Of a stretch of DNA of 64,000 bases, positions 16,909-52,783 are shown one piece after another. The position numbers were made by a program, and so were the translations under genes. The stretch is taken from NCBI GenBank assembly GCA_030693325.1, contig JAUYAV010000011.1, positions 109,603 to 173,602 on the forward strand. Reading direction: 5' to 3'. The first letter of the stretch is position 1, and the number at the start of each line of letters is the position of its first letter. Origin of the DNA: a bacterium. Lineage in GTDB: Bacteria > Patescibacteriota > Minisyncoccia > UBA6257 > MFKM01. The notes below the pieces were generated by a model that saw only the letters and a list, made by a program, of their open reading frames with translations, was not told the DNA's origin and ran no database searches.

Positions 16909-16996
16909 GGAAGGGTGCAGGAGCGGTTTAACTGGCGATCCTGGAAAGATCGTGTACCGCAAGGTACCGCGAGTTCGAATCTCGCCCCTTCCGCCA
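16909..16996 (+). tRNA. tRNA-Ser (anticodon GGA), class II with long variable arm, CCA encoded
   Basis: GGAAGGG-UG-CAG-GAGCGGUUUAA-CUG-G-CGAUC-CUGGAAA-GAUCG-[UGUACCGCAAGGUACC]-GCGAG-UUCGAAU-CUCGC-CCCUUCC-G-CCA. It closely parallels the E. coli tRNA-Ser architecture. The track ORF 16779..17036 (-) overlapping it is spurious. Confidence 0.9.
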
Positions 16997-21809: not shown

Positions 21810-23044
21810 AAAAATCAAAAAAAATAAAGAAAGTAAAAAAAACAAAAACAAGAAAAAATAAGCTCCCCGGGAAAAAAGCCAAGCTAAGATTGCGCCTTCG
21901 CTCAAAAGCTCAGCACGGCAAAAAATCTCCCAAAAAACAAAAAAAAATAATCCTATTTATTGAGGAAGATTTTGAATTTAAAGGAAAAGATAAAAAAAAG
22001 TTAGATACTTTAATCAAGAGGGGCAAGAGTAAAAAATATATCACTGATTTGGAAATCCTTTATTTCTTCCCCGATATTGAACACAACATTCCCCTTTTGG
22101 AAAAAATATATGAAATTTTAGAAAAAAGCAGCATCGGGGTAATTGAAACCGAACAATTCATCAAAACTTCGGAAGACCCGATTGAGAAAGAACACAGCAA
22201 TGTTCGTGAAACCCTGCCTGATGCCGTCCAGATGTATCTTAAGGAAATCGGCAAAACTCCCCTTTTAAAAGCCGAGGAAGAAGTGTCCTTGGCTAAAAGA
22301 AAGGAGAGAGGAGAAGAAGCAGCCAGGCAGCAACTGATGAAAGCCAATCTCCGGCTGGTGGTTTCTATCGCCAAAAAATACGTTCACCGCAGCCCCAATT
22401 TAAGCATCTTGGATTTGATTCAGGAAGGCAATATCGGGCTTTCCCGCGCCGTGGAAAAATTTGACTACCGCAAAGGTTTTAAATTTTCCACTTACGCCAC
22501 CTGGTGGATCCGCCAGGCCATCACCCGCGCCTTAGCCGACCAGTCCCGGACCATCCGTATTCCCGTTCATATGGTGGAAACCATTTCCAAATACACCCAG
22601 ATTAAAAGGAAGCTCACCCAGGAATTGGGACGGATGCCATTAGCGGAAGAAATCGCCAATGAGATGGGAATTGAAGTCAGCAAAATTCATTATATCCAAA
22701 AAATTTCCCAGGAAGTTATTTCTTTGGAAATGCCTTTGGATGAAAATGAGAGCGAAGGAGTCACTCTGTCTGATTTTATCCCGGATAACCAAAGTTTAAC
22801 GCCAGAACAATTAGCCAGCCATACGCTTTTAAGAAACCAGCTTAAGGAAATTATCAGCGACCTTTCGCCGAGGGAACAAAGGATTTTAAGCATGCGTTTT
22901 GGCTTGGAAGACAATGTCACCCACACCCTTGAAGAAGTCGGCAAGGAATTCGGGGTGACGAGGGAGCGAATCCGGCAGATTGAAGCTAAGTCCTTGGAAA
23001 AAATCCGCCAGCATAAAGAAATTGGAAAATTGGAGGGATACTAA
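21806..23044 (+). CDS. rpoD: RNA polymerase sigma factor RpoD (sigma-70) with Lys-rich N-terminal extension
   Basis: Regions 2-4: [40 protein letters not shown]...[24 protein letters not shown]. Classical dnaG-rpoD arrangement. Confidence 0.92.
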
Positions 23045-23051
23045 AAATCTA

Positions 23052-23129
23052 ATGACCAGCAAAGAAATACGAAATTTATTTCTGGAATTTTTTAAGGAAA
23101 AAGGACATACCATCGTCCCCTCTTCTTAA
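23052..23129 (+). pseudogene. Orphan 5' fragment of an alanyl-tRNA synthetase gene (25 codons then stop)
   Basis: MTSKEIRNLFLEFFKEKGHTIVPSS* matches the universally conserved AlaRS N-terminus (..EIR..F..FF..KGH..V.SSSL) better than the intact alaS at 25800 does. Nucleotide sequence diverges from the intact copy. Confidence 0.6.
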
Positions 23130-23372
23130 TATTAATATCATTGACAGATTTGATTAAAAATTCTATGCTGATGATAGAAAAAGTCGATAAAATTTATTTC
23201 TTTTAAAAATGAGAAAAAAAATACAAACTAAAATTGTGAAAGTTCGCCAAGCTAAGAAATGCTATCCTATAACAAGTAAAGCTAAGACTTTTATTTATAC
23301 TGCAGAAAGCGTTACGCCATTAATAGCGGCAGGAAAAACACCTAAAATCAAATAATAAAGTGAAATGGGTGA

Positions 23373-24836
23373 TTGATAGGCGATAAAATTCTGCCCAAAA
23401 AGGCGCGGAGGAAATTTTTAATTTTTATGAAAAAAAGAAAGCAAAAAGAGATACTAAGCAAAAAATTAACCCACCCGAATTATATATTCTGTTTAAAAAA
23501 GGAGAGGAATTGGTGTTTATATAACGCCTTAACCTTAAAAAAATGTTATGGAGGGAAGGAACTCTCGGCAGTTTATCGTTTGACAAACAAACTGATTGAA
23601 GAAGAAATTCTTGTTCGTAAATTAATAAATTGCGACCATGATCCAGAAGAAATAAAAAAACTCATCCGTGAATTGAAGAAAGAAAAATTTTTGGTTTACT
23701 CAAATTTTAGTGGAGAAAAATTCCGAGAAAAAATTAAAAATGGATTAAAAAAAATAAAATATCAACCGATGGGAATGTACCTCCTCGTTTCTACGGGATG
23801 TAATTATCGGTGTAAATATTGTTGCCTGGAACACAGTATCGATACTCATTCGCTCCAGCCAAAATTAATGTCTTTTAAAGTAGCGAGGGAAGCAGTCAAT
23901 TTTTTCTTTAAATCTTCTCCTAATCCTCAGTATATTTGTTTCTTTGGTGGCGAACCATTAATTAATTTTAAAATAATTAAAGAAATTGTTGAATATATTA
24001 ATACTGAATATCCAAATAAAAAAATCTTTTTCCGAATTAACACAAATGGTTCATTGGTCAATCAAGAAATCGCAGAATTTTTTGCTAAATATAATTTTGT
24101 TATTGGGGTATCTATTGATGGGACGAAAAAATATCATAATTCATGTAGAGTGTATCCAAATGATAAAGGCACTTTCGAAGATACTATTAAGGGTTGGCAT
24201 CTCCTTCAAAAAGCAGGATGTAAAAACTTAGGGACAGTAGCGGTCCTTAACTCTCAAAATATTGAAGCAGTTGAAAAGAATATCTTATTTTTCCTTGATG
24301 AATTAAAAGCTGATTCAATAAATTTTGAGCCAGTAGGAATAATAACAGAACCTCAATATTTATATCTTTATCCCTCTCCAAAGAAAGTTGCACAGGCTCT
24401 CGTCAAAAATTACGAAAATTTAGAATCTCGCGGAAAGTTAGATAATTATATTGCACGATTTCTAATTCATTTTTTAGGGGAAAAAGTTCTTTTTTGCCGC
24501 TGCGGCTCACGATACGGAAGTTTAATAATCGACCCCCAGGGGAACAAGGGTCCTTGTTTCAATTTTCTTGGAAGTGTTTATTTTTCTAAAAAAGGTATTA
24601 CTTATGCGAAAGAATGGAAAAACATTTCTCCGGTTAATATGCCCGAATGTACTAATTGTATTGCTATAGGAATTTGTGGTGGTATTTGCGCAGCCCATGC
24701 AAGAGCGGTGGGTGGAAATATTCGAAGCATTGACTTAGAATATTCTTGTGAGATTATGAAAGAAATCTTAAGATGGATGATTTGGGATCTAGAAAAAAGA
24801 TTAGCATCTAAGAATGAGGCAAAAAATAAACCGTAA
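23373..24836 (+). CDS. Radical SAM enzyme with C-terminal SPASM domain (peptide-maturase-like)
   Basis: CNYRCKYCC (CxxxCxxC) radical-SAM cluster motif. C-terminal Cys-rich SPASM-like pattern CRCGSRYG...GPCFNF...CTNCIAIGICGGICAAHA. About 130-aa N-terminal extension (possible RRE). Very AT-rich. Confidence 0.75.
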   Translation: MIGDKILPKKARRKFLIFMKKRKQKEILSKKLTHPNYIFCLKKERNWCLYNALTLKKCYGGKELSAVYRLTNKLIEEEILVRKLINCDHDPEEIKKLIRELKKEKFLVYSNFSGEKFREKIKNGLKKIKYQPMGMYLLVSTGCNYRCKYCCLEHSIDTHSLQPKLMSFKVAREAVNFFFKSSPNPQYICFFGGEPLINFKIIKEIVEYINTEYPNKKIFFRINTNGSLVNQEIAEFFAKYNFVIGVSIDGTKKYHNSCRVYPNDKGTFEDTIKGWHLLQKAGCKNLGTVAVLNSQNIEAVEKNILFFLDELKADSINFEPVGIITEPQYLYLYPSPKKVAQALVKNYENLESRGKLDNYIARFLIHFLGEKVLFCRCGSRYGSLIIDPQGNKGPCFNFLGSVYFSKKGITYAKEWKNISPVNMPECTNCIAIGICGGICAAHARAVGGNIRSIDLEYSCEIMKEILRWMIWDLEKRLASKNEAKNKP

Positions 24837-24842
24837 AATTTT

Positions 24843-25769
24843 ATGAAATTTAAACTGATATTGAATAAAAATGCGAATTTTTATTATTTTCTTCATAATC
24901 TTGCTGAAATTAAAGAACCCTTGCATTATCGAAAATGGAATATTATGCCTTGGAAGAAAGAACTAAATTTTCCATTTTCTTCCTCAGAAGCCACTGCTTT
25001 AAAAAAATTTAAAAAAAAATATTATGCTAATTTCCCAAAAATATATTTGGGTAGATTTTTTTTCTTGGAGAAAAATTCTTGGGAAACTCTTAAAAACGAA
25101 GTTGGGCAGGAAGAAATTAATATTTTGAACGATGTATTTCGAATATGGAAAAATAAATTCTTCTTGATTTATAGGAGAGATTTGCCAAATTTAAAAAAAT
25201 GGCGAAAAAAATTGGAAATAGAAATTCAAAAACTTAGCAAGTCTTCCTTAATAAACTTCATCAATACAAAACTTATTAAATTTTTTAATGCTCCTGTTCC
25301 ATTTAAAAAAAAATTAAAGATTTATTTAATGCTTTGCGGTACTTCAAATACTGCTAGCGGAGAAAGAGGAAGGGGTCTTGATGGAAAAAGTATCCTTATA
25401 GAAATTTCTCGTTGCCCAACCCATCAAATAAATTATGTTATAGGTGTTATTTGGCACGAATATGTTCATTGTTGTCTTGCATCTTATCATTTACGGCCAC
25501 TGCTTTTAAATTTTTTTAAAAACGACTCAAAAGTATTATTTGCTGAAGAAATTATTGTTAGATCATTATTTCCAACAGGAATTTTTGGTATAAAATTTTT
25601 TAAAATATGTCCACCTTCAACATTAACTTCCAGCAAATGGGAGACACTGCCCAAAATCAATAAAAAACAAACCAAAATGGTTATTGACCTTACAGACCAA
25701 TATCTGCAAAAAGAGAAAAAAATTGATACATTCTACGTAAAAAAAATAGGTCGAATATTAAAAATTTAA
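24843..25769 (+). CDS. Hypothetical protein with HExxH motif (WHEYVHCC), putative metallo-hydrolase
   Basis: Single HEYVH motif in an otherwise unrecognised Lys/Phe-rich 308-aa protein; co-located with the radical SAM gene. Confidence 0.4.
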   Translation: MKFKLILNKNANFYYFLHNLAEIKEPLHYRKWNIMPWKKELNFPFSSSEATALKKFKKKYYANFPKIYLGRFFFLEKNSWETLKNEVGQEEINILNDVFRIWKNKFFLIYRRDLPNLKKWRKKLEIEIQKLSKSSLINFINTKLIKFFNAPVPFKKKLKIYLMLCGTSNTASGERGRGLDGKSILIEISRCPTHQINYVIGVIWHEYVHCCLASYHLRPLLLNFFKNDSKVLFAEEIIVRSLFPTGIFGIKFFKICPPSTLTSSKWETLPKINKKQTKMVIDLTDQYLQKEKKIDTFYVKKIGRILKI

Positions 25770-25799
25770 AAAGAATTATTAAATCTTTATCAAAAAATT

Positions 25800-27659
25800 A
25801 TGAATTCAAATGAGATTAGAACAAAATTTATTGAATTTTTTAAACAAAATGACCATCTTAGGATACCCGGTTCGTCATTGATATCTGAGGATCCTACTCT
25901 TTTATTCGTGAATGCCGGCATGGTTCAATTCAAACCTTACTTTTTGGGTCTAAAAAAACCTCTATCAAAACGAATCACTGATTTTCAAAAATGCTTCAGG
26001 ATGATTGATATTGATAAAGTCGGTAATAATAATAGAACATTAACTTTCTTTGAGATGTTAGGAAATTGGTCTATTGGAGATTATGGAAGAAAAAAAGCAA
26101 TATCTTATGCTTGGGAATTACTTACTAAAATTTACAAAATTAACAAAGAAAGATTGTGGGTTAGTATTTTTAAAGGAGAGAAGAATATTCCCTACGACAG
26201 AGAAACACTGGAGGTCTGGATGGGTACAGGAATAAAAAGGGAAAGGATTGTGGAACTCGGCTTAGAAGATAATTTCTGGATAGGTGGGCCTACAGGCCCT
26301 TGTGGTCCTTGTAGTGAAATCTATTATGACCTAGGAGAGGATTTTGGTTGTGGCAAAAATAATTGCAAGCCCGGTTGTGATTGCAATCGCTTTTTAGAAA
26401 TTTGGAATTTAGTTTTTATAGAATATTGCAGAGACGAAAAAGGAAATACTGTCAATCTACCAATAAAAAGCATAGATACAGGAGCTGGGCTGGAAAGATT
26501 AGCTATAGTGCTTCAACAGAAATCCTCAATTTTTGAAACAGATTTGTTTGCTCCAATAATAGAAAAAATTCGAAATTGGAAATTCGAAATTGGAAATTCT
26601 GATTTGGCCGACCGAAGTGAACGAATTATCGCTGATCATACAAAAAGTGCTGTTTTTTTGATATCTGAAGGAGTTTTTCCTTCTAATGTTGAAAAAGGTT
26701 ATATCTTAAGAAGAATTTTAAGAAGAGCAATTAGATTTGGTAAATTATTAAAATTGCCAAAAAATTTTCTGATTACTTTGGCTCAAAAAGTTTTTGAAAT
26801 TTACAGAGAAGTCTATCCCGAACTTAAATCGAAAGGGGCTGATATTTTAACTATAATTCAAAAAGAAGAAGAAAAATTTGAAGAAACCTTAGACGAAGGA
26901 ATAAAAGCACTTAAAAAAATCTACGGAAGAGCCATAGGAGGAGTGGACCCCGAAAATTTACCAGAGGGAATGGTTATTAAAGATAATATAATAAGGGTTG
27001 ATGGGCAAGAGATTTTTCATATATACGAAACTTATGGTTTACCCCCAGAACTTTCTCAAGAAATTATGACCGAATGGGGAATCAGATTTGATGATCAAAC
27101 AATAAAAGAATGCGGGGAAGCCTTCAAAAAACACCAGGAAATTTCCCGGGCCGGGCTGGAAAAAAAATTCGGCGGGCACGGTTTGAAAGATGGCGGCGAA
27201 ATCACCGGCGCGACCGAGGAAGAAAAACAAAAAATAGTCCAGCTTCACACCGCCACTCACCTGCTCCACCAAGTGTTAGCTGATTTATTCGGCGAAAATA
27301 TAAAGCAGATGGGTTCGGATATAAACCCCGAACGCTTCCGCTTTGATTTTCCGTTTGAAAGAAAATTAACGCCGGAAGAAATCACTAAAATTGAAGAAAT
27401 CGTCAACCAAAAAATCAAAGAAAATTTACCTGTTAGATTTGAAGAAAAAACAAAAGAAGAAGCGATTGCCGAAGGAGCCAAGGCCTTTTTCAAAATTAAA
27501 TATCCGGATAAAGTAAAAATTTATTCCATCGGCGATTACAGTAAGGAAATCTGCAACGGCCCGCACGTGAAAAACACCTCCGAAATCGGTAAGTTCAAAA
27601 TAATCAAAGAAGAAGCGGTTGGGGCAGGCATCAGAAGAATTAAAGCAACTATTGATTAA
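25800..27659 (+). CDS. alaS: Alanine--tRNA ligase (short form lacking the C-Ala domain), compositionally chimeric
   Basis: N-terminus NEIRTKFIEFF..DH..IPGSSL...NAGM, editing-domain HTATHLLHQVL and CNGPHV motifs. About 30% GC up to roughly 27.05 kb, then about 45-50% GC to the stop. Confidence 0.9.
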   Translation: MNSNEIRTKFIEFFKQNDHLRIPGSSLISEDPTLLFVNAGMVQFKPYFLGLKKPLSKRITDFQKCFRMIDIDKVGNNNRTLTFFEMLGNWSIGDYGRKKAISYAWELLTKIYKINKERLWVSIFKGEKNIPYDRETLEVWMGTGIKRERIVELGLEDNFWIGGPTGPCGPCSEIYYDLGEDFGCGKNNCKPGCDCNRFLEIWNLVFIEYCRDEKGNTVNLPIKSIDTGAGLERLAIVLQQKSSIFETDLFAPIIEKIRNWKFEIGNSDLADRSERIIADHTKSAVFLISEGVFPSNVEKGYILRRILRRAIRFGKLLKLPKNFLITLAQKVFEIYREVYPELKSKGADILTIIQKEEEKFEETLDEGIKALKKIYGRAIGGVDPENLPEGMVIKDNIIRVDGQEIFHIYETYGLPPELSQEIMTEWGIRFDDQTIKECGEAFKKHQEISRAGLEKKFGGHGLKDGGEITGATEEEKQKIVQLHTATHLLHQVLADLFGENIKQMGSDINPERFRFDFPFERKLTPEEITKIEEIVNQKIKENLPVRFEEKTKEEAIAEGAKAFFKIKYPDKVKIYSIGDYSKEICNGPHVKNTSEIGKFKIIKEEAVGAGIRRIKATID

Positions 27660-36690: not shown

Positions 36691-38241
36691 TTATTCGTGT
36701 TTTTCTTCTTTATCTTTTAGAGCCTCCTCTATCGCTTTTTGCAGGTCTCCAATATTTACTTCAGCTCTTTCCCGGACGGGTCTCTCTTGATTAGTCGCCG
36801 GCTGACTAAACTGACTCGCCGGACGTTGTGGTTTTTGCGTTTCAGCCGGCTGGCGAGGACCCAGAACTTTTTCCAAAGGCATTTCATCGCGGCGGACAAT
36901 TTTTTGTTCAATCGATTCTTTCTTGTTCATTTGATCGGCAATTTTTTGTTCAATAATCTCCTTGGGAAGACTATAACGATGACGGCAATTTTCAATTATA
37001 ACATCCCTAAGATTATCAGCCGGCGCCTTTTCCAAAGGCAGAGTTTCGGCGGAAAAAGCCCGGGAAGCGATTCCGTCAATCATTAATTTGGTGTAGATAT
37101 TGAATTTGGGAAGATTGACTAAATCATTGATCAAAAATTCCGGCTCAAATTCTTTTTCTAAAAATTCCGCGTCTTCCGCTCCCACGCGGAAAACAACAAT
37201 AGTTCCGACATTACCAAAAACCGCGTCTCGGACTTTTGTGCTTTTGTCGCTACCAACCAGTTGCCCGATATACTGATGCGCCAAAATCAAATCCAAACGG
37301 TATTTCCGGGCTTCGGATAATATATTAGCGAATGACTCGGTGGCGAAATTCTGGAACTCGTCAACATAAAGATAAAAATCTCTCCGCTTGTTTTCGGCAA
37401 TATCGCTCCGGGACATCGCCGCCAATTGTATTTTGGTAATCATCAAGGCCCCCAAAAGCCGCGAATTGTCTTCACCGATTCTCCCTTTGGAAAGATTGGC
37501 GATAAAAATTTTTCCTTCATCCATTATTTTCCTGATATCAAAAGTGGAATGCGGCTGGCCGATGATATTGCGGATTAAAGGATTAGCGATAAACTGACCG
37601 ACTTTATTTTGAATAGCCGCCACCGCTTCGGTTTCCAAGCGTTGGGTGTAGCGGGCGAATTCATCAACCCAGAAACTTTTGATAACCGGATCCTGAAGAT
37701 TTTCCACGACTTTTCTCCGATATTCTTTGTCGGCTAATAAATGCATAATCCCCAACAAAGTGGAGCCGGGATATTCCAGAAGGGTCAATAAAGAATTATT
37801 AAGAATGTATTCCATCCGGGCTGACCAAACATCGGGCCAGATTTTTTTAAACACGCTCATAATGCCCGAAGCGACCAGATGGCGCAATTCCGGGTCGGTT
37901 AATTCCAAGGGATTAAAAGCCATCGGAAAATTTATATCGGCGGGATTAAAATAAATCACGTCGTCCATCCGCGATTCCGGAATTAATTCCAAAATTTTTT
38001 CGGCAAATTCGCCGTGGGGATCAATAATACCTATTCCCCGACCGGCTTTAATATCGGCTAAAGCCATATTTTCCAACATTTCGGTTTTCCCCACGCCGGT
38101 TTTCCCGATAACATACATATGCCGTCTGCGGTCGTCGGTTTTTATGCCGAATTTCACCCGTTGATTACGGAAATTGGTTTGGGCAAACATTGTTACTTCA
38201 TTATTTTCCATGTCAAATTTATAAGCCGAAAGTGTAATCAA
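36691..38241 (-). CDS. TraD/VirD4-like (type IV coupling protein family) P-loop ATPase, soluble form
   Basis: Walker A YVIGKTGVGKTEMLENM, Walker B FYLYVDEFQNF, and the TrwB/TraD-type block GIGIIDPHGEFAEKILELIP; Glu/Gln/Pro-rich acidic C-terminal tail. Confidence 0.55.
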   Translation of the reverse strand: MITLSAYKFDMENNEVTMFAQTNFRNQRVKFGIKTDDRRRHMYVIGKTGVGKTEMLENMALADIKAGRGIGIIDPHGEFAEKILELIPESRMDDVIYFNPADINFPMAFNPLELTDPELRHLVASGIMSVFKKIWPDVWSARMEYILNNSLLTLLEYPGSTLLGIMHLLADKEYRRKVVENLQDPVIKSFWVDEFARYTQRLETEAVAAIQNKVGQFIANPLIRNIIGQPHSTFDIRKIMDEGKIFIANLSKGRIGEDNSRLLGALMITKIQLAAMSRSDIAENKRRDFYLYVDEFQNFATESFANILSEARKYRLDLILAHQYIGQLVGSDKSTKVRDAVFGNVGTIVVFRVGAEDAEFLEKEFEPEFLINDLVNLPKFNIYTKLMIDGIASRAFSAETLPLEKAPADNLRDVIIENCRHRYSLPKEIIEQKIADQMNKKESIEQKIVRRDEMPLEKVLGPRQPAETQKPQRPASQFSQPATNQERPVRERAEVNIGDLQKAIEEALKDKEEKHE

Positions 38242-38267
38242 ATTCTACCACAAAAAAAGAAAGCTCT

Positions 38268-39515
38268 TTATTCCACAATCGGCAATTCCGCCGGCGGCTC
38301 GCCTCTCCGGGATTCCAAACGGTGCAAGGTCGGCGCTTCCACGGAAGTCGTCGGGAAATGATAAACCGTGGCCAGTTCTTCGGTATTAAAAATTGAAAAT
38401 TTTTTAGGGAATGAACGAGCCTTATAGCCGTCAAAAATCCGGCGCTTGCGATAAAAAATCTTTTGGGCCTTGAAAGGAAAATCGGCTTTGGTAGTTACCG
38501 AGCCGTCAGCTTTAAAAGCGTTGAGATTCTGGGTGTTGAATTGCCAGAGCGCTCCCTGGATAGCGGAAACGTTGGAACGGGTAAAGGCATCGGCTTTGTC
38601 TATATAAACAAATCTCAAAGCCGCTTCAAATCCCAATTTGGAAATTTTTTCTTCCACGGCCTTAATCACGTCTTTTTCGCCGGGGGTCAAAGGACCGGCA
38701 GGCGATGACTCCTTATTTTCCTCAGACCAAACCGGATGGACAGCCGGCGCTTTTATCAAATTTAGAAAAAATTCTCCCAGCTCCTCCAGCAGAGTCCGTT
38801 CTTTGTCGGCTTTCCGGCCGATTAATTTGTCTGTTATTTTTTCTCCTTCCTTTTTCCATTCGTCTCCGGTCGGCCTGATCAAAAACTGAAGCCAAATCAT
38901 TTCGTCTTCTTTAAGTTTGGAAATCGTCTCAGTGATAGCCGCTATGGGGTCTAATCTTTGTTCTTCTACTTTTTCTTCAAAATAGGGGTAGGTCCGAATA
39001 GGATAAGCGTTTTCGCGGGCTAAAATAAAATTAGTCCCCCAAACGTCATAAACTTTATCGGGCAAAATTGACGGCAATAAGCCGTCATAGTCCTCCGATT
39101 CAACAATTTCCACATCCGGATATTGGGCATAAATGGCCGATTCCAAAAGATTCCGAAACGGTTCCGCGACTCTTATGTAAAAATGAATTTTGCCGGCGTT
39201 GCCAACCAGTTCAAAAGACATCCAATCATCCACTTTTCCTTTCCACCACTTATCCCAGAATTTCATCTTCCCGGAATAGATGGCGTGGGCGGCGGCAAAC
39301 ACCTGCTCCATGGCTTTCGGGGTTTTCAAAATCTCGCGGGGGATTTTAATTTCTAAAAGTTTCCATTTGATTTTAAGCATGTATCCCCGGCGGACAGTCA
39401 TCAGCCAGAAATCCAAAAAAATAAACAAAAGAACCAGCGGCAAAACTATCCACCAGCTCGCCGCCAAAATGCGAAAAACAATCTGGAGAATTCCATTTAA
39501 ATTATCGGCTGCCAT
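38268..39515 (-). CDS. Hypothetical membrane-anchored protein (415 aa), likely operon partner of the T4CP-like ATPase
   Basis: Single N-terminal TM (ILAASWWIVLPLVLLFIFLDFWLM), then a large soluble domain. It is 27 nt upstream of the ATPase on the same strand. Confidence 0.45.
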   Translation of the reverse strand: MAADNLNGILQIVFRILAASWWIVLPLVLLFIFLDFWLMTVRRGYMLKIKWKLLEIKIPREILKTPKAMEQVFAAAHAIYSGKMKFWDKWWKGKVDDWMSFELVGNAGKIHFYIRVAEPFRNLLESAIYAQYPDVEIVESEDYDGLLPSILPDKVYDVWGTNFILARENAYPIRTYPYFEEKVEEQRLDPIAAITETISKLKEDEMIWLQFLIRPTGDEWKKEGEKITDKLIGRKADKERTLLEELGEFFLNLIKAPAVHPVWSEENKESSPAGPLTPGEKDVIKAVEEKISKLGFEAALRFVYIDKADAFTRSNVSAIQGALWQFNTQNLNAFKADGSVTTKADFPFKAQKIFYRKRRIFDGYKARSFPKKFSIFNTEELATVYHFPTTSVEAPTLHRLESRRGEPPAELPIVE

Positions 39516-39540
39516 AAAATTAAGGTTTTGATTTTATTAA

Positions 39541-40566
39541 CTACGCCTCCTTAATTAAAGTATAACGATTATCGGGCAATTTCTCAAAGTAACGCTTATT
39601 CGAAAGATTCAAGAGAATGGTGTTTTCGCGAAGAAACCGTTCTTTTCGGACCAAGGCAACAATTTTTTGAGCATCAAGAGACCCGTGTTTTTTTAGAATC
39701 CGGATCAAAACCTCCCGTGCTGTTCCCGGCTCATAACCCTGTTCTTTCAAACCGTAAATTCCCCGCCCCACCAAAACAAAACGATTGTCTTTAATTAACT
39801 CATTATGAACCGTCTGGGGGTAGGCCTTTTTGTGGTCAAAAGCCAAATTATTGATTTTTTGGGTAAGTTCCCTAAAATGCAGGGGCTGGCTGTGTTTTTT
39901 GATAACCAAATATGCCTTGTCGCTGATGACTCTGGGATTGATTTCCGGCCAATGACTCAAGCCGAAATCTCCGAAAACATTAACATCAAAATTTTTTGAT
40001 AAGGACAAATAATTAACGGCGGATAAATCTTCAAAACGAGCCAAATGAATTTTTTTGTCAATTATTTTTTCCGGACCGAATTTTTCGCAAAAATCCGCAA
40101 CTTCTCTGATTTTTTTCAAAGCTTTATTTTTGATTTCTTCCTGAAGATACCAAAAATCGTGCATAGTTTCATCCGCTTCCGAAAACTTCGGCTCGCCATT
40201 CAAAGTAAAAATAAATCGCAATTTGCGCTCAAAAAATTTCGGCCAATTTTCTTTAGCGGTCAGATGTTTTAATTCCTGGATTAAAAGGTCATCGCGTTTC
40301 AAACCGCCGGCGGAAACCAAATGGTTTTTCACCGGTTCTATTAAATTGCTCACTTCCTCTTTGTTAAGATAACTTTTTAATTTCTCCATCCCCTGGTTTT
40401 CGATTTGTCTCACTCTTTCGCGGGTGATGTTAAAACTATCCCCGATTTCCTGGAGAGTTTTTCCTTCGCCGTCTCTCAAACCGAATCTTTCAATCAAAAT
40501 TTCCCGTTGGCGTTTTTCCAAACGGGCTAAAAGATTGTTTGTAAAATTGTCTAATTCTTTAACCAT
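39541..40566 (-). CDS. Sigma-70 region-4-like HTH fused to C-terminal HARE-HTH-like domain (transcription-associated)
   Basis: N-terminus LEKRQREILIERFGL..GEGKTLQEIGDSFNITRERVRQIENQGMEKLK resembles sigma70_r4. C-terminus HFRELTQKIN...VHNELIKDNRFVLVGRGIYGL is HARE-HTH-like. Confidence 0.5.
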   Translation of the reverse strand: MVKELDNFTNNLLARLEKRQREILIERFGLRDGEGKTLQEIGDSFNITRERVRQIENQGMEKLKSYLNKEEVSNLIEPVKNHLVSAGGLKRDDLLIQELKHLTAKENWPKFFERKLRFIFTLNGEPKFSEADETMHDFWYLQEEIKNKALKKIREVADFCEKFGPEKIIDKKIHLARFEDLSAVNYLSLSKNFDVNVFGDFGLSHWPEINPRVISDKAYLVIKKHSQPLHFRELTQKINNLAFDHKKAYPQTVHNELIKDNRFVLVGRGIYGLKEQGYEPGTAREVLIRILKKHGSLDAQKIVALVRKERFLRENTILLNLSNKRYFEKLPDNRYTLIKEA

Positions 40567-47521: not shown

Positions 47522-47594
47522 TGCGCCCAGAGGGATTCGAACCCCCGACCATCTCCTTAAAAGGGAGCTGCTCTACCAACTGAGCTATGGGCGC
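47522..47594 (-). tRNA. tRNA-Lys (anticodon UUU), no encoded CCA
   Basis: Reverse complement GCGCCCA-UA-GCUC-AGUUGGUA-GAGC-A-GCUCC-CUUUUAA-GGAGA-UGGUC-GGGGG-UUCGAAU-CCCUC-UGGGCGC-A; cloverleaf intact apart from one 27:43 mismatch. Confidence 0.88.
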
Positions 47595-52350: not shown

Positions 52351-52386
52351 AAAAAACCGTTCCGATGCGCATCGGAACGGTTTTTA
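52351..52386 (+). terminator. Rho-independent terminator
   Basis: aaaaccgttccgatgcgcatcggaacggttttt. Confidence 0.7.
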
Positions 52387-52448
52387 CTTGATTAAATTTT
52401 ATTTCTATTGATTTGCCTTTCAAATTTTATTTCTATAAAATGAAGTCA

Positions 52449-52750
52449 TTCCGACGTAGCTCAGTGGTAGAGCGACTCCCTGTAAATTTAAAATTGCAGC
52501 TTTCCCGAGTAATCGGGATTGAAAAACGAGGTGAATTCGGGGAAACCCTATAAAAGGGCAATCCCGAGCCAAGCCCCGACTTAACGTCGAGGAAGGTGTA
52601 GAGACTATCCCGAAAGGGAGTACTCCAAATAAAATTGGGGGAAGCGCCTCGCACCCTCTAAAAAAGAGGGTGATGATATAGTCCGTCCCCAATGGAAACT
52701 TTGGGATAAACGTAAGGAGACGGTCGTAGGTTCGAATCCTACCGTCGGAG
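52449..52750 (+). tRNA. tRNA-Asn (anticodon GUU) interrupted by a group I intron between anticodon-loop positions 35 and 36
   Basis: Exons: UCCGACG-UA-GCUC-AGUGGUA-GAGC-G-ACUCC-CUGU | UAA-GGAGA-CGGUC-GUAGG-UUCGAAU-CCUAC-CGUCGGA-G. The spliced anticodon loop CUGUUAA is the canonical tRNA-Asn loop. The 5' exon ends in U and can pair with an intron GCAG guide; the intron ends in G. Track ORFs 52420..52692 and 52433..52654 are spurious. Confidence 0.8.
52483..52712 (+). ncRNA. Group I self-splicing intron (230 nt, no ORF) within tRNA-Asn
   Basis: Conserved core elements: P-like AAAUUGCAGC, R-like GUGUAGAGACUAUCC (P7 5' strand), S-like GAUGAUAUAGUCCGUCC (P7 3' strand / P9.0). Size and anticodon-loop location resemble the compact bacterial tRNA introns (Anabaena tRNA-Leu, Azoarcus tRNA-Ile). 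Confidence 0.8.
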
Positions 52751-52754
52751 CAAA

Positions 52755-52783
52755 CAAAAAATCGCCTATTGGGCGATTTTTTG
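52755..52783 (+). terminator. Rho-independent terminator after tRNA-Asn (near-duplicate at 57846..57872)
   Basis: caaacaaaaaatcgcctattgggcgattttttgg versus caaacaaaaatcgccaatacggcgattttttgg. Confidence 0.65.

Follow-up and report, generated by a model that had tools for sequence, protein, structure and literature searches.

A compact group I intron between positions 35 and 36 of a tRNA-Asn(GUU) gene in a Patescibacteria draft genome

Introduction

In the older intron databases, the group I introns of bacterial tRNA genes were confined to four hosts, tRNA-Leu(UAA), tRNA-fMet, tRNA-Ile(CAU) and tRNA-Arg(CCU). These four classical intron-bearing types have since grown to 21 with the use of tFind (Williams 2020, bioRxiv 10.1101/2020.01.27.920355), and a tRNA-Asn type is listed there as 'Asn.4Ug', as far as that listing is quoted by Nakagawa et al. 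(PMC13011429). Here we describe a tRNA-Asn(GUU) gene that is split by a group I intron in its anticodon loop and that lies at positions 52450-52750 (plus strand) of a 64,000-nucleotide (nt) stretch of contig JAUYAV010000011.1 (positions 109,603 to 173,602, assembly GCA_030693325.1). This whole stretch is called the window throughout. The split gene had been recognised in an earlier note, made from the letters of the window, which also supposed that the Asn host and the lineage would extend the list of known cases. That part did not hold, given the 21 types of Williams 2020 and the report by Nakagawa et al. of the same class in Patescibacteria.

The closest described system is indeed the one reported by Nakagawa, Amikura, Omae and Suzuki (bioRxiv July 2025; mSystems 2026, PMC13011429), namely introns inserted between positions 35 and 36 (35/36) of tRNA-Asn in Patescibacteria, with 15 tRNA-Asn cases in 95 complete Patescibacteria genomes. 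In that work 25 of the 28 introns at 35/36 were placed in subgroup IA, although IC accounts for 81% of bacterial tRNA introns overall, and homing endonucleases are absent from most 35/36 introns. ARAGORN and tFind were reported to miss these introns or to miscall their hosts as Thr(UGU) or Ala(UGC). Precise self-splicing was obtained in vitro for one Asn and one Asp 35/36 intron, with an omega-G-to-C change as the control, and the authors speculated that splicing might regulate the supply of tRNA-Asn at the RNA level in a genome with few regulators.

Results

A tRNA-Asn(GUU) gene in two halves

The gene consists of two exons with 229 nt between them, all on the plus strand. The 5' exon (52450..52483, 34 nt; TCCGACG-TA-GCTC-AGTGGTA-GAGC-G-ACTCC-CTGT) carries the acceptor 5' strand, the D arm, the 5' strand of the anticodon stem and the loop nucleotides C32, U33, G34 and U35. 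The 3' exon (52713..52750, 38 nt; TAA-GGAGA-CGGTC-GTAGG-TTCGAAT-CCTAC-CGTCGGA-G) carries U36, A37 and A38, the 3' strand of the anticodon stem, the variable loop, the T arm, the acceptor 3' strand and the discriminator base G73, and it does not encode a CCA end. The intron (52484..52712) therefore sits in the anticodon loop, between positions 35 and 36. The earlier note had placed the start of the gene one nucleotide too far upstream, at 52449, and had given the intron 230 nt instead of the 229 that we measured.

When positions 52484-52712 are removed in silico, the resulting 72-mer is called by ARAGORN as tRNA-Asn(GTT), with a canonical cloverleaf and the anticodon loop CUGUUAA; the encoded tRNA is thus 72 nt long without CCA. 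All possible junctions were tested under the requirements that the 5' exon ends in U, that the intron ends in G and that a 7-nt loop with U33 and R37 results. There was one solution, in which CUGU precedes the intron and UAA follows it, giving the anticodon GUU with the intron at 35/36. The base pair U1-A72 and the discriminator G73 are Asn identity features known from E. coli tRNA-Asn. Both are found in the window's tRNA, as in each of the 98 further loci that we assigned to Asn in the survey described below. On host tRNA, insertion site, loop and length of the spliced product the earlier note was accurate, as it was in expecting that gene callers would miss the tRNA: neither ARAGORN with default settings nor the Rfam tRNA model gives a call here. 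No plus-strand open reading frame (ORF) of at least 50 amino acids (aa) is present inside the intron, which is consequently described as ORF-less, again in agreement with that note.

A group I intron with IA-type architecture

A scan of the whole window with the Rfam model Intron_gpI (RF00028) gave a score of 83.4 bits against a gathering threshold of 50 (E = 1e-19). The match is full-length, from model position 1 to 253 of 253, and covers window positions 52480-52705. The three motifs that had been quoted as group I core signatures were all located, AAAUUGCAG at 52491-52499, GUGUAGAGACUAUCC at 52597-52611 and GAUGAUAUAGUCCGUCC at 52672-52688. Folding of the precursor gave z = -5.2 relative to shuffled sequences, most helices being recovered in the minimum free energy fold, and 84 of the 85 proposed base pairs are standard in the window, the exception being A27.A43 in the tRNA part.

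The P1-P9 fold that the earlier note had called for was built and examined by covariation in an alignment of 59 compact tRNA-Asn precursors, window included. Standard pairs occupy 91.6% of the cells, compared with 35-45% in controls whose partners were shifted by 1-3 columns. Changes on both sides are seen in 62 of the 85 pairs, and none of 500 shuffles reached the observed values. Covariation is seen in all intron helices that vary (P2, P3, P4, P5, P6, P7.1, P7.2, P8 and P9), and the exon helices are 97-100% paired.

All elements of the fold lie on the plus strand. P1 (52480..52499) is formed by CUGUAA (52480-52485), which spans the 5' exon's end, and the internal guide UUGCAG (52494-52499). 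The 5' splice site falls after U52483 and carries the wobble pair U52483.G52496, so that the wobble between the terminal U of the exon and a GCAG guide had been read correctly in the earlier note. The four exon-side pairs of P1 (C-G, U-A, G-C and U.G) are unchanged in 59 of 59 sequences. P2 (52503..52518) is a hairpin closed by a GUAA (GNRA) tetraloop and is 90.7% paired, with compensatory changes at 6 of 6 pairs. P3 joins CGAGGUG (52527..52533) to CGCCUCG (52645..52651; 96.4% paired, 4 of 7 pairs compensatory). P4 (52537-52542 with 52562-67; 96.3% paired) encloses, within 52537..52567, an A-rich J4/5 and P5 (52546-49 with 52555-58; 75.7% paired), and both helices show compensatory changes. 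The P6 hairpin (52574..52592) is 93.2% paired, and 6 of its 6 pairs are compensatory.

In P7, GACUA (52603..52607) pairs with UAGUC (52679-52683); all 59 sequences have this helix fully paired (100%) and unchanged. It makes a pseudoknot with P3 and lies inside the AGACUA and GAUAUAGUC blocks that are conserved in Rfam. As in characterised group I introns, P7 would hold the guanosine-binding helix. It is followed by P7.1 (52608-11 with 52616-19; GAAA loop; 94.7% paired, 4 of 4 pairs compensatory) and P7.2 (52623-28 with 52635-40; 82.2% paired, 6 of 6 pairs compensatory), which together (52608..52640) make up a 35-nt insertion relative to the Rfam consensus, between P7 and the 3' strand of P3. 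The 8-bp P8 hairpin (52652..52672; 80.9% paired, 7 of 8 pairs compensatory) leads into J8/7 and the 3' strand of P7 (AUGAUAUAGUC, 52673..52683), of which GAUAUAGUCC is invariant in the family and agrees with the Rfam consensus. P9 (52688..52705) is a hairpin with a GAAA tetraloop (81.8% paired, 5 of 6 pairs compensatory), and the intron ends at G52712, the omega-G, which is followed by UAA at the 3' splice site and is invariant in 59 of 59 sequences. The terminal G had also been noted beforehand.

Of the 113 columns with a conservation of 90% or more, the window deviates from the family at two (G52685 and C52711), both outside the core. The family median is one such deviation; two is typical for the set, and so this copy gives no sign of decay.

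An uninterrupted orthologue at a syntenic locus

The junction predicted for the spliced exons, GACTCCCTGTTAAGGAGACGGTCGTAGG, was searched in metagenome contigs and gave one match, contig Ga0209541_10044235 (L242). This is a syntenic locus, with a lepA gene of 79.9% nucleotide identity over 1,810 nt and, downstream of lepA and in the same orientation relative to it as in the window, an uninterrupted tRNA-Asn(GUU) (L242:10-82, minus strand). Of the 72 positions, 67 agree between the L242 tRNA and the product predicted after splicing, and a close match to an intron-less tRNA-Asn is the criterion that Nakagawa et al. apply. In the acceptor stem, two compensatory swaps account for four of the five differences; the fifth is in the D-loop, and the anticodon arm, including the loop CUGUUAA, is identical. 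At the level of the alignment, 39 nt (52713-52751, i.e. the 3' exon plus one base) match L242 at 94.9%. Thus, an uninterrupted tRNA that corresponds to the predicted spliced product confirms the exon boundaries, and it shows that fairly close relatives differ in whether they carry the intron. lepA and the tRNA are about 1.2 kb apart in L242 and 0.67 kb apart in the window, and the ORFs in between differ, the one in the window being a 153-aa ORF.

Alternative explanations

We consider it very probable that the locus is a functional, self-splicing tRNA-Asn(GUU) gene with a group I intron at 35/36. Some points nevertheless weigh against this view. The assignment to subgroup IA follows from the P7.1/P7.2 insertion between P7 and P3', which is typical of IA, and is thus drawn from the architecture and not from subgroup covariance models such as those used by Nakagawa et al. 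The cloverleaf has a single blemish, the mismatch A27.A43, which lies topmost in the anticodon stem. The promoter-like site upstream (TTGCCT-17-TAAAAT, 52413..52441, plus strand), which has 9 of 12 matches and ends 9 nt before the tRNA, is weak and suggestive only, such sites being no more numerous than in shuffled sequences. This copy is presumably transcribed, and its splicing would follow by analogy with the group I family and the homologue tested in vitro. Finally, the gene is presumably the sole tRNA-Asn gene of its genome, but 64 kb were covered and a second, intron-less copy might lie elsewhere. Several of these points could equally be taken to mean that the intron is a decayed, catalytically dead relic and the tRNA-Asn copy a pseudogene whose function is supplied by another, intact gene: the splicing of this copy is extrapolated, the anticodon stem has a mismatch, and the part of the genome examined is 64 kb. 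We regard such a relic as very unlikely, since all family-invariant positions are intact, the two deviating conserved columns leave the core untouched, all intron helices are fully paired in the window and the Rfam score is well over the gathering threshold. Moreover, the A.A mismatch is found identically in the uninterrupted orthologue, and a standard 27:43 pair is likewise missing in 10 of the 59 relatives.

A junction placed elsewhere, and with it another host tRNA, appears even less probable. ARAGORN in its intron mode (-i) does report a tRNA-Tyr(gta), that is Tyr(GUA), with a 216-nt intron, but this call displaces the junction, requires a non-canonical long arm and disregards the group I rules. 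Likewise, Thr(UGU) with the intron at 33/34 is how published tools miscall members of the class (PMC13011429), but the window intron ends in ACG, which makes the Thr(UGU) misreading impossible for this copy, and only GUU at 35/36 fits the U at position -1, the omega-G and a canonical loop. The Asn features U1-A72 and G73, the pairing of the P1 guide with CUGU and the loop of the L242 orthologue also argue against any other host. Lastly, two ORFs span the region, as the earlier note had pointed out; both are on the minus strand (52420-52692, 90 aa, and 52433-52654, 73 aa), and one could suppose that it codes for protein and that the RNA signals are coincidental. This is the idea to which we give the least credence, close to none: neither of the ORFs crossing the intron has a Pfam match even at E <= 1, both run across a tRNA exon, and a coincidence would have to account for a covariance match of E = 1e-19 as well as for the compensatory evolution of base pairs. 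The functional, self-splicing tRNA-Asn(GUU) gene is hence retained in what follows.

Homologues in draft genomes

Relatives were collected by a genome scan for the P7 and J8/7 motifs together with a downstream tRNA T-arm, which matched at least 120 loci. Cloverleaves were reconstructed for these, and under strict rules 39 of the 120 listed loci received no assignment and 53 appeared Thr(UGU)-like at 33/34; the Thr(UGU)-like loci and those left without an assignment are attributed to Asn by U1-A72, G73 and the P1 guide. Among the 120 matches listed, 98 are other tRNA-Asn(GUU) loci split at 35/36. This suggests that the class is much commoner in draft metagenome-assembled genomes (MAGs) than the 15 cases in 95 complete genomes would indicate. 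Among the matches listed, the closest to the window precursor is L220 (78% identity), and the nearest relatives over the whole precursor (72-78% identity) come from MAGs labelled Patescibacteria or Saccharibacteria. In the loci retrieved, the flanking proteins of the window gave no match that was informative. A broader search pattern, GAGCCAAG..AAGGTGTAGAGACTA, was tried and given up as too unspecific, with more than 120 viral contigs carrying introns in unrelated genes.

The other hosts among the matches listed are tRNA-Phe(GAA) at 33/34, tRNA-Asp(GUC) at 35/36 and CAU tRNAs at 36/37. The Phe (L123, L149, L197 and L200) and Asp (L169, L179 and L203) introns have the same build and are consistent with the published host list; the exon end CUGU, paired by GCAG, is common to Asp and Asn. 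Under relaxed rules, His(GUG) at 33/34 (L183 and L193) and Leu at 32/33 (L228) were also obtained, but these calls are doubtful and are not relied on. For L183 and L193, in particular, the 5' exons are similar to the CAU-type tRNA of L150, which makes the His(GUG) call doubtful. L183 (Rhodothermales), L193 (Saprospiraceae) and L207 (Cytophagales) are MAGs labelled Bacteroidota or Rhodothermota with related introns in other tRNAs; the introns of L183 and L193 are about 680 nt long, and that of L207 is at 36/37 in a CAU tRNA.

As regards length, the median is 250 nt, and introns of 520-630 nt are found at 35/36 of tRNA-Asn in L153, L163, L173, L185, L191, L192 and L225. These longer introns are probably the published forms that bear HNH homing endonucleases.

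Introns at 35/36 of tRNA-Asn also occur in MAGs titled 'uncultured Gammaproteobacteria', 'Bdellovibrionales' and 'Pseudomonadales' (L155, L163, L202, L213, L233, L210, L216 and others; TPA_asm records), with 5' exons that match those of Falkowbacteria and Patescibacteria MAGs (L137 and L156) exactly or almost exactly. Further cases are in MAGs labelled Elusimicrobia (L161 and L223) and Omnitrophica (L153). Either the titles of the records are wrong, or the class extends more widely beyond Patescibacteria than complete genomes would suggest.

Flanking signals and genomic neighbourhood

Directly 3' of the upstream 153-aa ORF, for which no family match was found, lies a palindromic G+C-rich hairpin (52352..52385, plus strand) followed by a plus-strand T run. 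The scanner called this hairpin on the minus strand, and its plus-strand reading is our interpretation of the letters; read in this way, it probably terminates the 153-aa ORF and would leave the tRNA as its own transcription unit. A second terminator-like hairpin, AAAAAATCGCC-tattg-GGCGATTTTTT (52756..52783, plus strand), comes directly after the tRNA with a T-run; it is not in the list of the scanner and was read straight from the sequence. The two hairpins, the one after the upstream ORF and the one with a T-run after the tRNA, thus point to a transcription unit of its own for the tRNA.

The gene is surrounded by ordinary chromosomal genes, encoding LepA, the 153-aa ORF, an alpha/beta hydrolase, a ROK kinase, a glycosyltransferase, MscS and SecD/F. 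A mobile-island or low-GC-island context was considered and set aside, the neighbours being housekeeping genes and the dip in G+C content (GC) unremarkable. The flank at 53-56 kb has a GC of 32-36%, most 1-kb bins are at about 36-45%, and a stretch of lower GC (28-33%) is found elsewhere, at 23-27 kb, so that the location at the edge of a low-GC island that had been proposed for the gene is weak.

The GroEL encoded in the window is 100% identical to one MAG protein at NCBI, 90% identical to that of Ca. Jorgensenbacteria and 74-78% identical to proteins of Wolfebacteria and to many 'Patescibacteria group' proteins. Gene content also fits the candidate phyla radiation, with a short AlaRS, a 240-aa RpoA, ComEC, a VirD4-like ATPase and large ORFs without family matches. 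Judging by the GroEL homologues and the gene content, the window is part of a Patescibacteria chromosome, of a Parcubacteria/Paceibacteria-like type.

Some other loci of the window may be mentioned. ARAGORN calls a tRNA-Ser(GGA) at 16909-16996, and at the gathering threshold Rfam reports only a tRNA-Lys (47522-47594) and the intron. The lowest GC (28-33%) is in 23001-27000, where a radical SAM/SPASM peptide maturase (23427-24836) may belong to a cluster for a ribosomally synthesised and post-translationally modified peptide (RiPP); it adjoins a short, 619-aa alanine-tRNA ligase (25800-27659). In 36691-40566, a VirD4-like coupling ATPase (36691-38211), a 415-aa ORF without family match and a 341-aa protein, matched only at its N-terminus by a sigma-70 region-4-like segment, stand together and may be what is left of a conjugative or type IV secretion module.

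Discussion

On the model of group I introns in general, maturation of this tRNA could proceed as follows. The transcript would fold into P1-P9, with the guide GCAG (52496-52499) pairing with the exon end CUGU and U52483.G52496 marking the 5' splice site. The first attack, after U35, would come from an exogenous guanosine bound in P7. Its pocket would then be taken by omega-G52712, and the 3'-OH set free on U35 would attack at the boundary between G52712 and U36. The exons would thereby be joined into a 72-nt tRNA with the loop CUGUUAA and the anticodon GUU, to which CCA would have to be added after transcription since it is not encoded.

The finding of an intron-less orthologous locus in a relative with about 80% identity in lepA means that the intron was possibly gained or lost recently. 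Possible routes would be reverse splicing, in-trans homing by an HNH endonuclease of a sister intron, or precise loss via a spliced RNA copy. Another idea, the speculation of Nakagawa et al. cited above, is that splicing controls the supply of tRNA-Asn at the RNA level. In our opinion a reading along these lines is unlikely. The window and L242, one with and the other without the intron at a syntenic site, would make a handy natural control for studies of intron gain and loss.

Our work adds one more Patescibacteria tRNA-Asn gene that is overlooked by standard callers, and such misses lower tRNA-based estimates of genome completeness. The abundance of the class in draft MAGs and the intron-less allele in a syntenic relative are mildly new. 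The host tRNA, the site, the phylum, the subgroup, the annotation blind spot and the in vitro self-splicing of a homologue are already published.

Among known systems, the phage introns of subgroup IA, of which T4 td is an example, share with the window intron the core motifs GAGCCAAG...AAGGUGUAGAGACUA and a similar P7-P7.1 (GACUAUCCC-loop-GGGAGUA). By BLAST, the window intron is 68-78% identical to phage introns in DNA polymerase and primase/helicase genes (H1-H20), and the core motif GAGCCAAG...AAGGTGTAGAGACTA is present in more than 120 IMG/VR viral contigs. The catalytic core thus belongs to a phage-rich lineage, and its kinship to phage IA introns, as judged from these sequence matches, agrees with the published IA assignment. 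The phage introns differ in that they interrupt protein-coding genes and often carry homing endonucleases, whereas the window intron is ORF-less and lies in a chromosomal tRNA gene.

The classical IC3 introns comprise those of cyanobacterial and plastid tRNA-Leu(UAA) at 34/35, of tRNA-fMet at 33/34, and of Azoarcus tRNA-Ile(CAU) and Agrobacterium tRNA-Arg(CCU), both at 36/37. These self-splicing group I introns likewise sit in the anticodon loop, are small and for the most part free of ORFs, and have an omega-G and a U.G pair at the 5' splice site. The P3-P6 region and the GGUGUAGAGACUA block resemble the Azoarcus intron, and an IC3 (Azoarcus-like) class had been considered on the strength of the likeness in P3-P6. 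It was ruled out by the covarying P7.1 and P7.2, which are absent from IC3, and the window intron differs further by its position at 35/36 in tRNA-Asn.

The agreement with the class of Nakagawa et al. (PMC13011429) is much closer. The two have in common the host tRNA and its anticodon, the site (CUGU before the intron, a terminal G and then UAA), the phylum, the GCAGC guide and a core with IA-type P7.1/P7.2. Moreover, both are compact and endonuclease-less (229 nt in the window, against 222-259 nt in the aligned published examples without a homing endonuclease gene), and in both the standard tRNA finders fail on the gene. The window precursor aligns end to end with three published precursors, taken from the supplementary table of Nakagawa et al., at 63-69% identity and with the splice sites in register. 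Identity is 64% to the tRNA-Asn precursor of GCA_016700035.1, which was spliced in vitro, and 69% to a Paceibacteria precursor, the junction contexts being identical. The differences are that the window intron ends in ACG where GUG is common, and that the MAG of the window is outside the complete-genome set of that paper. Since the window agrees with the published class in every respect that could be tested, its intron belongs to the Patescibacteria 35/36 class; and since this arrangement has already been published for Patescibacteria, with a homologue spliced in vitro, the case described here is an ordinary member of it.

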